Shown here in pieces: positions 2-2,959 of a stretch of DNA of 2,959 nucleotides. The DNA comes from Escherichia coli (GTDB lineage Bacteria > Pseudomonadota > Gammaproteobacteria > Enterobacterales > Enterobacteriaceae): the NCBI RefSeq assembly GCF_003334255.1, contig NZ_QOWU01000129.1. One strand, 5' to 3'. The position numbers and the translations under genes are program-made. The notes under the pieces were generated by a model, which saw only the letters and a list, made by a program, of their open reading frames with translations, made no database searches and was not told the origin of the DNA. Every line of letters starts with the position of its first letter. Within the stretch, counting starts at the first letter, position 1.

Positions 2-841
2 TGGCTTGCGCAGTGCGGGCTGACGGTGGAGCAACTGGCCAGACAGGTGGAGCCGGAATACACACCGGCGCGAAAAGTTCATTTTTACCACTGCGACCAC
101 CGGGGCCTGCCGCTGGCGCTCATCAGCGAAGACGGCAATACGGCGTGGCGCGGGGAGTATGATGAATGGGGCAACCAGCTTAATGAGGAGAACCCGCATC
201 ACCTGCACCAGCCGTACCGTCTGCCAGGGCAGCAGCATGATGAGGAGTCGGGGCTGTACTATAACCGTCACCGGCACTACGATCCGTTGCAGGGGCGGTA
301 TATCACCCCGGACCCGATTGGGTTGAGAGGTGGATGGAATATGTATCAGTATCCGTTGAATCCCATACAAGTGATAGACCCAATGGGGTTAGATGCGATT
401 GAGAATATGACATCAGGTGGACTAATTTATGCCGTATCTGGTGTACCTGGATTGATTGCTGCAAACAGCATTACTAACAGTGCTTACCAGTTCGGTTATG
501 ATATGGATGCTATTGTTGGCGGAGCTCATAATGGGGCCGCCGATGCAATGAGACATTGTTACTTGATGTGTCGAATGACTAAGACATTTGGATCAACAAT
601 AGCTGACGTGATAGGTAAAAATCATGAGGCGGCAGGGGATAGACAAGGTCAGCCAGCTAAAGAAAGAATCATGGATCTTAAAAATAACACTGTCGGTATT
701 GCTTGTGGCGATTTTTCTGCCAAATGTAGCGATGCATGTATTGAAAAATATAACACTGGGCAACTCTTCGGGTTAGATGGTATAAAAGCAGATAATCCAA
801 TAAAAGCAAAGCAAGGGAGTTCAGATGCTTCAAATTATTAG
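2..841 (+). CDS. Rhs-family protein, C-terminal portion (5'-partial; start lies upstream of the window): end of conserved Rhs core plus variable C-terminal toxin domain
   Basis: Frame 2 is open from the window edge (nt 2) to TAG at 839-841; the ORF-track start at 26 is a GTG inside a longer open frame. The translation ([58 protein letters not shown]...[47 protein letters not shown]) matches from memory the conserved end of enterobacterial Rhs core domains, including the YD-repeat-like YDEWGN and the PxxxxDPxGL motif. Possibly rhsE-like; unverified. Confidence 0.9.
362..391 (+). other. Rhs core / C-terminal-domain boundary motif PxxxxDPxGL ([10 protein letters not shown])
   Basis: Direct translation of nt 362-391 gives [10 protein letters not shown]. 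In Rhs and related polymorphic toxins this motif marks the autoproteolytic junction between the conserved core and the variable toxin tip (established knowledge for the family). Confidence 0.85.
392..838 (+). other. variable Rhs C-terminal (CT) toxin domain, ~149 aa, family unassigned
   Basis: Sequence downstream of DPMGL ([149 protein letters not shown]). GC content drops visibly relative to the core segment (by eye, not computed). Position directly after the boundary motif and directly before a small coupled ORF is typical of Rhs-CT toxin domains. Confidence 0.7.
813..819 (+). promoter_or_regulatory. Shine-Dalgarno (AAGGGAG) for the ORF starting at 825
   Basis: AAGGGAG at 813-819, 5-nt spacer (TTCAG), then ATG at 825-827. 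It lies inside the 3' end of the Rhs coding sequence. Confidence 0.6.
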
Positions 842-1307
842 AGGCAAACTTGTCATTTTTTTAATTACCCTTTGTTTATTTGTTGTTTACCTTGGGTTTG
901 ATAACAATTCAAATTCTGACATCGTATTTTATGGACATAAAACACCAAAGAGCGTTGAGATATATCTTTCTGAAAAAAATATTATTTATAAAATAATTAA
1001 TGACCAAAAAATTAGTAGAGGGAATGGTCATTTTATAAGTATAATGGTTAATAATTACAGGACGCACTGTGGAGTGGTTGATATAAATCTTAATTTTTTC
1101 AATGATATTCTTTATAGCGTGCGATTAAAAAACATTAGTAAACTGGAGAATATGGAGTTCTGCGCTACAAAACAACGGGTGTATTTTAGTGATAAAAACA
1201 AGAAGGCTAGTTATAAAATAATTAATTATGGAGACTATTATGATGTTGATTATTATGATAACAATTTGAAAAATGAAGTTTTTGACTGGATTGGTAAATG
1301 GTCATAA
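825..1307 (+). CDS. putative cognate immunity protein of the Rhs-CT toxin; small protein with N-terminal signal-anchor / TM helix
   Basis: 160-codon ORF, ATG 825 to TAA 1305-1307, with a strong SD and a start that overlaps the upstream stop by 17 nt (translational coupling). The N-terminus [32 protein letters not shown] has a positively charged n-region followed by a ~17-residue hydrophobic stretch. The region is extremely AT-rich. Functional call rests on synteny with the toxin, not on recognised homology. Possibly ydcD-like (160 aa) from memory; unverified. Confidence 0.7.
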
Positions 1308-1384
1308 TGAACAACACCAGAAAGAGAAAAATATAAAATACATACAGAAAGACATGAGAGCAAGGGACGGGGCAGGGCAAGATC

Positions 1385-1416
1385 ATGAAAATTGTGATGT
1401 AAATCACGATTTTCAT
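1385..1416. repeat. inverted repeat / hairpin (14-bp arms, 4-nt GTAA loop); candidate weak intrinsic terminator or protein-binding palindrome
   Basis: ATGAAAATTGTGAT (1385-1398), GTAA (1399-1402), ATCACGATTTTCAT (1403-1416). The arms pair along all 14 positions with a single G-T (G-U wobble in RNA) at 1393/1408. It lies 77 nt downstream of the immunity-ORF stop and is followed by CTTTGCTTT. The stem is AT-rich, so a terminator role is uncertain. Confidence 0.45.
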
Positions 1417-1419
1417 CTT

Positions 1420-2640
1420 TGCTTTAACGCCTACAGGTGATCAAAATTTAACCTTTGGAATAACTAAAAAGATAAAAAAGGACGCCAGGTGAGTATTCAA
1501 AGTTTGCTTGATTATATTTCAGTGACCCCTGATATACGACAACAAGGAAAGGTTAAACATAAATTATCTGCTATTTTGTTTCTCACCGTATGTGCAGTAA
1601 TTGCAGGTGCCGATGAGTGGCAGGAAATTGAAGATTTTGGACATGAAAGACTTGAATGGCTAAAGAAATATGGTGATTTTGATAATGGCATTCCGGTCGA
1701 TGACACCATTGCACGCGTTGTGAGTAACATTGACAGTTTGGCCTTTGAAAAGATGTTTATTGAATGGATGCAGGAGTGCCATGAAATCACTGATGGTGAA
1801 ATTATAGCAATAGATGGAAAGACCATAAGAGGCTCCTTTGATAAGGGAAAAAGAAAAGGAGCAATCCATATGGTGAGTGCATTCTCGAACGAAAATGGTG
1901 TTGTACTGGGGCAGGTGAAAACGGAAGCCAAAAGTAATGAGATTACAGCCATTCCAGAGTTGCTTAACCTACTGTATTTAAAGAAAAATTTGATAACCAT
2001 TGATGCTATGGGCTGTCAGAAAGATATCGCTTCGAAGATCAAAGATAAAAAAGCAGATTATCTTCTGGCAGTAAAAGGCAATCAGGGGGAATTACATCAT
2101 GCATTCGAGGAAAAATTTCCTGTAAATGTGTTTTCTAATTATAAAGGCGATTCGTTTAGTACGCAGGAGATAAGTCATGGAAGAAAAGAAACACGTTTGC
2201 ATATTGTCAGTAACGTAACGCCTGAACTTTTGTGATTTTGAATTCGAATGGAAGGGATTAAAAAAGCTTTGTGTAGCATTGTCATTCAGGCAGAAGAAAG
2301 AAGATAAATCAGCAGAAGGTGTAAGCATCCGATATTATATTTCATCAAAGGATATGGATACTAAAGAATTTGCACATGCTATCAGAGCGCACTGGCTGAT
2401 CGAGCACAGTCTTCATTGGGTGTTAGATGTAAAAATGAATGAAGATGCCAGCCGGATAAGAAGAGGAAACGCAGCCTAAATAATATCTGGAATAAAGAAG
2501 ATGGCACTGAATTTATTAAGAGATTGCAAAGACATTAAGGGTGAAGAGGAAAAGAAAGAAGGCTGCGTTAAACACAGGGAAAGATCATCAGAAGTTCACT
2601 TTTTGTACTAAACAATTCGCATTTTATGTTTAAAAATTGA
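1420..2640 (+). mobile_element. degenerate ISAs1-family (H-repeat-like) insertion sequence; element ends NOT mapped, coordinates approximate
   Basis: Inferred from the decayed ISAs1-type transposase gene it contains (1489-2633). Terminal inverted repeats were not identified by eye. Confidence 0.4.
1489..2633 (+). pseudogene. ISAs1-family transposase (H-repeat-associated-protein-like), disrupted by two frameshifts and one in-frame stop
   Basis: Frame 1 (GTG 1489 to TGA 2233-2235) encodes a 248-aa N-terminal part with clear similarity to the second copy at 2719 and, from memory, to E. coli H-repeat-associated proteins (YhhI/YdcC/YbfD type). Motifs include ILFLTVCAVIAGADEWQEIEDFG, YGDFDNGIPVDDTIARVV, IAIDGKT, SNEITAIPELL, ITIDAMGCQKDIA and LAVKGNQG. 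Homology continues in frame 2 from ~2234 ([13 protein letters not shown]...RYYISS...[29 protein letters not shown]), is interrupted by in-frame TAA at 2477-2479, continues (IISGIKKMALNLLRDCKDIKG), then shifts to frame 3 near 2540-2544 (KRKRKKAALNTG...) and ends at TAA 2631-2633. Reconstructed length is ~380 codons. Possible RBS AAGGA at 1477-1481. Confidence 0.85.
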
Positions 2641-2706
2641 GATATTCCTTATTACCTAAAGCTGTTTTTTATTGCTTACACATGATCAAATACTCCTTAC
2701 ATAATT

Positions 2707-2712
2707 AAGGAG
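2707..2712 (+). promoter_or_regulatory. Shine-Dalgarno (AAGGAG) for the transposase ORF starting at 2719
   Basis: AAGGAG at 2707-2712, 6-nt spacer, ATG at 2719-2721. Confidence 0.6.
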
Positions 2713-2718
2713 AACAAA

Positions 2719-2959
2719 ATGGAACTTAAAAAATTGATGGGACATATTTCTATTATCCCCGATTACAGACAAGCCTGGAAAATGGAACATAAGTTATCGG
2801 ATATTCTACTGTTGACTATTTGTGCCGTTATTTCTGGTGCAGAAGGCTGGGAAGATATAGAGGATTTTGGGGAAACACATCCCGATTTTTTGAAGCAATA
2901 TGGTGATTTTGAAAATGGTATTCCTGTTCACGATACCATTGCCAGAGTTGTATCCTGTA
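2719..2959 (+). CDS. ISAs1-family transposase / H-repeat-associated protein, N-terminal 80 codons (3'-partial, runs off window)
   Basis: Not in the supplied ORF track because there is no stop before the window end. My translation: [80 protein letters not shown]. It is open through 2958 and is near-identical, from memory, to the N-terminus of E. coli H-repeat-associated proteins (YhhI/YdcC/YbfD paralog group; the paralog cannot be distinguished from this fragment). Strong SD upstream. Confidence 0.9.

Follow-up and report, generated by a model that had tools for sequence, protein, structure and literature searches.

Organization of the RhsE locus

The window, that is, the whole stretch of 2,959 nucleotides analyzed here, corresponds to the RhsE locus of Escherichia coli K-12 and comprises, in this order, the rhsE tip, ydcD, the yncI pseudogene and ydcC (MG1655 annotation). 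K-12 strains match the entire window at 99.9% (megablast, complete E. coli genomes). In the NCBI annotation of MG1655, the 3' portion of the rhsE pseudogene is followed by ydcD, the oppositely oriented yncO, yncI, ydcC and pptA. The locus contains two insertion sequences, referred to as element 1 and element 2, and the following features (window coordinates, strand, description and basis of the assignment):

26-841, plus strand: 3' part of the rhsE pseudogene, with the end of the Rhs core and the C-terminal toxin tip (MG1655 annotation)
825-1307, plus strand: ydcD, the presumed immunity gene for the rhsE tip, inside a patch that appears to be imported (ORF list, MG1655 annotation)
1373-2574, plus strand: element 1, a decayed ISEc26-like element of the ISAs1 family, cut after nucleotide 1205 of the 1,305 of ISEc26 (alignment to intact ISEc26)
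1373-1389, plus strand: left inverted repeat of element 1, CAGGGCAAGATCATGAA (pairs with the right inverted repeats of ISEc26 and ISEc5)
1489-2574, plus strand: yncI, the decayed transposase gene of element 1, without its 26 native C-terminal codons (ORFs, NF033564, alignment)
2565-2574, no strand: target sequence GCGTTAAACA, left copy of a 10-bp target-site duplication whose right copy is missing in K-12 (O111 compared with intact ISEc26)
2575-2959, continuing to 3865 past the window, plus strand: element 2, ISEc5 (the H-rpt of RhsE), complete, 1,291 bp (independent copies)
2575-2592, plus strand: left inverted repeat of ISEc5, CAGGGAAAGATCATCAGA (matches to the right inverted repeat; flanks of copies)
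2612-2718, plus strand: interior of the ISEc5 leader, IS positions 38-144, with no element boundary (homology of ISEc5 copies)
2693-2712, plus strand: hairpin CTCCTTA-CATAAT-TAAGGAG, a perfect 7-bp stem with an N6 loop (minimum-energy and centroid folds)
2719-2959, plus strand: 5' part of ydcC, the intact ISEc5 transposase gene (378 aa, gene end at 3855; MG1655 annotation)

The small gene yncO (1222-1407, minus strand) overlaps the 3' end of ydcD and, because its reading frame extends into the ISEc26-like left inverted repeat (1373-1389), consists partly of IS-end sequence. The same left end contains a 14-bp near-perfect palindrome (ATGAAAATTGTGAT / ATCACGATTTTCAT, 4-nt spacer, 1385-1416), which overlaps the inverted repeat.

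Element 2 is a complete copy of ISEc5

Independent copies of ISEc1/ISEc5, taken from plasmids and from thousands of genomes, align to K-12 solely from position 2575 (CAGGGAAAGATC...; +/-4) to position 3865 (...CTTGCCCTG; +/-3), and in plasmid copies from unrelated contexts the flanks diverge immediately beyond CAGGG...CCCTG. A junction-centred search of 5,426 complete E. coli genomes, the sample used for all junction surveys, places the onset of homology at 2571-2576 and its end at 3865-3867 for copies called ybfD, yhhI and others. Because homology is confined to 2575-3865, element 2 is a complete 1,291-bp member of the ISAs1 family. The left inverted repeat, CAGGGAAAGATCATCAGA, matches CAGGGCAAGATTACGAAA, the reverse complement of 3848-3865, at 10 of the first 11 and 13 of all 18 positions, and each of 5 independent copies has other sequence immediately leftward of it. 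The window stops short of the right end of element 2, so a search for inverted repeats in it does not include both ends and was extended into the MG1655 record. In the extended locus, CAGGGCAAGATCATGAAA (1373-1390) pairs with TTTCGTAATCTTGCCCTG (3848-3865), which overlaps the stop codon of ydcC; the sequence at 2575-2592 is a second, direct copy of the CAGGGCAAGATCATGAAA-type motif.

The product of ydcC, annotated by NCBI as 'ISAs1-like element ISEc5 family transposase' (2719-3855), is a single DDE transposase that scores 416 bits against NF033564, the ISAs1 model of NCBIfam (cut-off 70), and covers model positions 1-314 of 314. Its ATG is preceded by a good ribosome-binding site (AAGGAG) and by a leader of 144 bp, counted from the end of the element. 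ISAs1-family elements are about 1.2-1.5 kb long. The family is further defined by CAGGG ends, inverted repeats of 14-22 bp and a direct repeat of 10 bp (PMC11946415), and element 2 conforms in its transposase, its ends and its length, and also in the 10-bp repeat, which is seen on both sides of the nested copy of O111 RM9322 described below. In K-12, the right inverted repeat of ISEc5 abuts the upstream region of pptA and the second GCGTTAAACA is missing. The two flanks (GCGTTAAACA on the left, GGCATTATTG on the right) are unlike each other, which is consistent with later recombination. Target duplications were also sought around 5 independent ISEc1/ISEc5 copies and none was found; the nested copy at the yafV locus is the only ISEc5 copy examined that is still flanked by one.

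Variants of the element occur at pptA in other strains. The pptA-linked ISEc5 of O157:H7 carries an in-frame expansion of about 33 bp at IS position ~953 (record L009, about 6830-6865), built on a AGCAGAAC-type 8-bp unit; its ydcC is annotated with 389 aa as against 378 aa, and the first base of the element is T (TAGGG), not C. In a B2-type strain from a dog (L010, 5910-7201) and in pBone4_4 (L004, 301-1660), the right inverted repeat of an ISEc1-like element abuts the 3' part of pptA (GCCGAAATCGCGCCCC...), and yncG/yncH and the Rhs region are missing on its left side; deletions therefore abut both ends of this element. Its left end departs after position 13 (CAGGGAAAGATCACGTAACGC...).

Element 1 is a truncated ISEc26-like element

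The intact element annotated as ISEc26 in O157:H7 and O55:H7 is 1,305 bp long and adjoins yafV. The references used here are the copies of O157:H7 (L012, 4949-6253) and of strain 194195 (L007, record CP044351.1), the latter found in a search for distant homologs of element 1 as a copy that extends beyond 2576. It reads ...GCGTTAAACACA|TGTTATATAGAAGAAGTG...TTAATTCATGCTCTTGCCCTG, the remainder of the transposase C-terminus being followed by the right inverted repeat. An alignment of K-12 element 1 with the intact ISEc26 over 1,204 bp shows 19 differing positions, substitutions and indels together. Of the 17 positions of the element 1 left inverted repeat, 16 agree with the ISEc26 right inverted repeat, and the same left repeat also pairs with the right inverted repeat of K-12 ISEc5. 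The final 99-100 bp of ISEc26 are missing from element 1, comprising the right inverted repeat and about 83 bp before it. The ISEc26 right end (TGTTATATAG...CTCTTGCCCTG) was looked for in the 15-kb K-12 locus and is absent downstream of ISEc5 and across the whole region. K-12-type genomes show one place of match only, which spans just the shared part of the ISEc26 query. Because it has lost its right inverted repeat, element 1 is a truncated remnant and not a complete IS.

Three lesions mark the transposase gene yncI, each of them also present in the O111 copy: the reading frame shifts by +1 at 2227, a G>T change creates a stop at 2477, and 5 bp are deleted at 2538/2539. Its fragments score 292.8 and 81.1 bits against NF033564, which identifies a decayed ISAs1-type transposase. 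A tandem duplication of one element was considered and rejected, as elements 1 and 2 share about 70% identity over part of their length only.

Two database records that contain parts of this region deserve comment. CP044351.1, labelled 'IncX4 plasmid p194195_1', carries between 69500 and 78500 an ISEc5-like element, an rhs fragment, ydcD, the intact ISEc26 and yafV; the record is typed as a conjugative plasmid and is unannotated, and this chromosomal-looking block was either captured from a chromosome or mis-assembled. NZ_CP069930.1, a 2,724-bp 'Klebsiella oxytoca plasmid', consists entirely of E. coli ydcD-yncO-yncI-ydcC at 95.6-98.8% identity and is probably no plasmid but a contaminating or mis-assigned contig.

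The interval between yncI and ydcC

A preliminary description of this DNA had drawn attention to the 85 bp that separate the two transposase genes, and this spacing is real: the frame from 2541 runs to a TAA at 2631-2633, ydcC starts at 2719, and 2634-2718 lie between. The NCBI annotation draws yncI to the same stop (L001, 7489-8633, equivalent to window 1489-2633). The stop had been taken as that of element 1 itself. It is instead a chance stop within element 2, the preceding codons being encoded by the ISEc5 left end: the intact ISEc26 transposase terminates in ...KKVALNT-CYIEEVLASCSELGFRTDKMKNLTQI, whereas in K-12 the 18 codons past ...AALNT (GKDHQKFTFCTKQFAFYV) are translated ISEc5 left end and not ISEc26. 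The gap and the apparent stop are nothing other than the initial 144 bp of ISEc5, followed in the reading frame of the truncated gene. Similarly, the junction between the elements, formerly placed in 2612-2718 and so some 40-140 bp too far to the right, is at 2574|2575, 37 bp upstream of that interval. In K-12-type annotations, yncI is drawn about 59 bp too long (to 2633) and should end at 2574, with an ISEc5 feature starting at 2575.

Intact, non-overlapping inverted repeats of both elements were looked for in 2612-2718 and neither is there: the left repeat of ISEc5 lies at 2575-2592, and the right repeat of element 1, for which a search had been advised, is gone from the whole K-12 locus. 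No IS end is shared or hybrid at the junction, as had been entertained. The earlier observation that there is little space for two complete ends is upheld, and there is in fact none, because element 2 is inserted into the 3' end of element 1.

An outward-reading promoter had also been considered. A consensus scan for promoters and terminators over 2400-2800 gives 3 promoter-like sites against 1.5 +/- 1.1 expected, a chance level around the junction that lends no support to an outward-reading or hybrid promoter. Within the leader, the 3' arm of the hairpin at 2693-2712 coincides with the Shine-Dalgarno sequence of ydcC, and this predicted structure could occlude translation initiation of ydcC on read-through transcripts. 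Such occlusion is known from other ISs. The fold of the whole ISEc5 leader is not significant (z = -1.42), and Rfam gives no match at E<=1 across 1300-2959.

ISEc5 is nested in ISEc26 at the yafV locus

The order of insertion, which by the preliminary description the junction could reveal, is settled by comparison of strains with and without the inner element. In O157:H7 and in strain 194195 the target is uninterrupted, and intact ISEc26 contains GCGTTAAACA once. The yafV-linked Rhs locus of O111 RM9322 consists of an RHS core, ydcD, the decayed left part of ISEc26, an ISEc5-like element, the ISEc26 right end and yafV, with GCGTTAAACA on each side of ISEc5; it shares its yafV flank with the uninterrupted ISEc26 of O157:H7. 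The left junction of O111 is that of K-12 base for base (...GGCTGCGTTAAACA|CAGGGAAAG...), with 41 bp to the left and 38 bp to the right identical, and the right junction of O111 reads ...CTTGCCCTG|GCGTTAAACACATGTTATATAG... The search for direct repeats that had been proposed was accordingly productive in O111 RM9322, with its 10-bp repeat, and gave nothing around the K-12 copy. The empty site, the filled site and the 10-bp direct repeat together argue that ISEc5 transposed into ISEc26, as the earlier suggestion that element 2 entered the 3' end of element 1 had it. On this evidence the alignments clearly indicate an insertion between nucleotides 1205 and 1206 of ISEc26 at the yafV-linked Rhs locus, accompanied by a 10-bp duplication, and a past transposition of ISEc5 may be deduced from the empty site of O157:H7 and the filled, duplication-bearing site of O111. 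By the same alignments, the RhsE locus of K-12 carries the left half of this structure only, its ISEc5 running on into the pptA flank.

Among the 5,426 genomes, the left junction occurs in 2,184, the complete nested right junction beside yafV in 284 and an intact ISEc26 adjoining yafV in 310; some genomes match just the last ~110 bp of ISEc26 and the yafV flank. A third state of the nested insertion is found at the yafV locus of UTME-8 (L011, 7395-7500) and SCEC020022 (L017), where the nested left junction persists without the right remnant of ISEc26 and about 70 bp of the yafV flank, which are deleted, and ISEc5 ends in a degenerate right inverted repeat (GTCTTACCCCG).

Mosaic structure of the K-12 locus

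The mosaic make-up of the K-12 locus explains the missing distal half of the nested insertion. In a sliding comparison, the rhs core to position ~127 shows 0-5 mismatches per 150 bp between K-12 and strains with the pptA-linked locus, as against 8-24 mismatches per 150 bp between K-12 and the yafV-linked module of O111/UTME-8. From ~133 to 2612, K-12 and the O111/UTME-8 module differ by 0-2 mismatches per 100-150 bp (ydcD by 0-1 per 100 bp), and from ~300 the pptA-locus strains are unrelated in this stretch and have another tip. K-12 thus tracks the pptA-locus strain L015 to 127 and the yafV-locus module of O111 from 133, and the patch has its left recombination boundary at about 128-247. From 2613, the first SNP that parts K-12 from the nested O111 copy, K-12 is near-identical to the pptA-locus strains and diverges from the O111/UTME-8 module (18 mismatches over the following 150 bp); within ISEc5 as a whole, K-12 and O111 differ by 3-18 mismatches per 100-150 bp, and in the rhs core upstream of the patch by 10-24. 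This is the pattern of a module exchange, with a near-identical patch between diverged homologous flanks that match another lineage.

Strains without ISEc26 at pptA illustrate the resident arrangement, and the K-12 sequence on either side of the patch is about 99.9% identical to such strains. SCPM-O-B-9504 has vgrG-rhs-...-ISEc5-pptA with no ISEc26, an O157-like arrangement in a K-12-like backbone: over 2,426 bp starting exactly at 2575 its identity to K-12 is 99.88%, its flank to the left of that position is unrelated, and its rhs core is near-identical to that of K-12 up to 127. O157:H7 likewise has an ISEc5-pptA junction without ISEc26; upstream of it are vgrG and an intact RHS core as well as an IS1 fragment and two small ORFs. 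At pptA, CE10 is free of both Rhs and IS, and its homology to K-12 begins directly past the right inverted repeat of ISEc5. Strain KL53 has the same pptA arrangement as K-12, with a switch of allele type between 2591 and 2705: alleles common to the nested and the O157 pptA copies occupy IS positions 39-105, and resident-type alleles begin at 131. The right joint of the patch therefore lies within 2575-2704, a widening of the range that assumes a single event ancestral to K-12 and KL53. This range overlaps 2612-2718, as a recombination joint rather than as an IS end.

Homologous recombination would have brought a patch of about 2.45 kb (~130-2574) to the pptA-linked Rhs locus, made up of the Rhs tip, ydcD, the truncated ISEc26 and the outermost left part of ISEc5. 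Of its two crossovers, one would fall in the conserved rhs core (~128-247), the other in the first ~130 bp of a resident ISEc5 (2575-2704). The import may have proceeded by direct double-crossover replacement or by integration followed by deletion between the two direct ISEc5 copies, which would yield an identical product. We infer such an import, with the rhs core and the left end of ISEc5 as the recombining sequences, from the distribution of mismatches. SNP patterns are blurred by gene conversion among the 4-11 ISAs1 copies of each genome, and, since most of the ISEc1/ISEc5 copies examined have no target duplication, shuffling of flanks is common; the history of the RhsE locus may involve further steps.

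Alternative explanations

The whole account, in which ISEc5 is nested in the 3' end of an ISEc26-like element with the junction at 2574|2575 and the left half reached K-12 by import of a module, is in our judgment highly probable. The right boundary of the patch falls within 38 bp of the ISEc5 terminus, if measured against an O111-type donor, and could hint at a transposase-mediated joint, as 38 bp are short for RecA-type recombination and longer identical stretches lie deeper in ISEc5. This shortness of shared identity also speaks for an unlikely course of events in which the left end of the resident pptA-linked ISEc5 attacked a complete ISEc26 upstream, at the same target and within the same molecule, so that an adjacent deletion removed the intervening DNA and the ISEc26 right end without a duplication, independently in the K-12 lineage. 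Such a deletion would account for a breakpoint that coincides with base 1 of the ISEc5 left inverted repeat and for the 99.88% identity, from that base on, of K-12 ISEc5 to the resident copy of an ISEc26-free strain; deletions that abut ends of ISAs1 elements do exist in the B2 strain L010, in pBone4_4 (L004) and in UTME-8 (L011). However, it would have to reuse, to the base and in orientation, the target of the duplication-bearing insertion present in 284 genomes, although the flanks of other copies reveal no target consensus. The identity of K-12 and O111 over 41 bp to the left and 38 bp to the right of the junction, the decay lesions of element 1 common to both, and the left end of the patch, which looks like a typical homologous crossover in the rhs core, fit the import of a ready-made junction.

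The direction of events might also be reversed, with the pptA-linked arrangement of K-12 as the original and the yafV-linked nested copies, with their apparent duplication, as secondary. Genomes with the left junction (2,184) do outnumber by far those with the whole nested structure (284), but the ISEc26 right end and flank at yafV are identical to those of the uninterrupted ISEc26 of O157:H7 at the same site, the 10-bp repeat is exactly the product of a single insertion, and the truncated K-12 form would have to regain 99 bp. Because the yafV-linked copies keep the native ISEc26 end and flank, this order is very unlikely. The probability is smaller still, and practically negligible, that two complete elements abut as a tandem IS pair with short or hybrid ends inside 2612-2718, for which the 85-bp spacing of the annotated coding regions is the sole argument: neither element has an inverted repeat in this interval, the homology of independent ISEc5 copies begins at 2575 and the ISEc26 right inverted repeat is missing, so that the alignments exclude an abutting complete pair or a hybrid end. 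Insertion of ISEc5 into ISEc26 at yafV, followed by import of the left half into the K-12 locus, accordingly remains the preferred reading.

Relation to known systems

The locus is an ordinary mobile-element scar at a well-studied site and offers little that is new; its significance beyond annotation is small. It does provide a clean example of an IS nested in an IS, of flank loss through recombination between IS copies and of Rhs tip swapping, in which the exchange of a toxin/immunity tip between loci appears to use conserved flanking repeats. A broader reading can be entertained, if with considerable doubt: the H-repeat may not be a mere passenger and may have acted as a portable right homology arm, the rhs core being the left one, that moved a toxin-tip/immunity module from the yafV-linked to the pptA-linked T6SS-linked Rhs locus, and the nested ISEc26::ISEc5 with its 10-bp duplication may constitute the first explicit sequence proof of E. 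coli H-rpt transposition. Literature searches on yncI/ydcC and ISEc26 brought up incidental mentions only, and Poole et al. (2011) mention neither a transposase or insertion sequence nor RhsE or homologous recombination.

Nested insertion of an IS, followed by IS-mediated recombination that parts the flanks, is a textbook pattern. The present case shares with it one copy that retains the target duplication and another that has lost one flank; unlike the textbook case, the IS here also seems to provide the right homology arm for the exchange of a toxin/immunity module between Rhs loci. In comparison with ISEc26 of O157:H7 and O55:H7, element 1 has the same left inverted repeat and a closely similar body (19 differing positions over 1,204 bp), but, unlike the intact element, it carries a frameshift, a premature stop and a 5-bp deletion, and it breaks off 99-100 bp before the end, without the right inverted repeat.

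In the Rhs elements of E. coli K-12, the H-rpt (Hinc repeat) is ISEc1/ISEc5 of the ISAs1 family. The H-rpt was reportedly described in 1993, by Zhao et al., as 1,291 bp long with one ORF of 1,134 bp; element 2 (2575-3865, CAGGG...CCCTG) is exactly 1,291 bp long, and in the element itself nothing differs. Transposition of the H-rpt has been stated as not observed (PMC3032704), whereas the empty and filled sites with the 10-bp duplication offer sequence-level evidence that the E. coli H-repeat was once mobile.

In the published view, Rhs tips are displaced or replaced by homologous recombination, and cores and tips are decoupled by it (Jackson et al., 2009, PMC2935791). K-12 likewise shows decoupled histories of core and tip and a left crossover that would lie in the conserved end of the core. 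The published model invokes circular intermediates and a displacement that leaves arrays of old tips (PMC2935791); in contrast, K-12 has lost the old tip region, and it is an ISAs1 element, not Rhs sequence, that appears to contain the right boundary of the patch.
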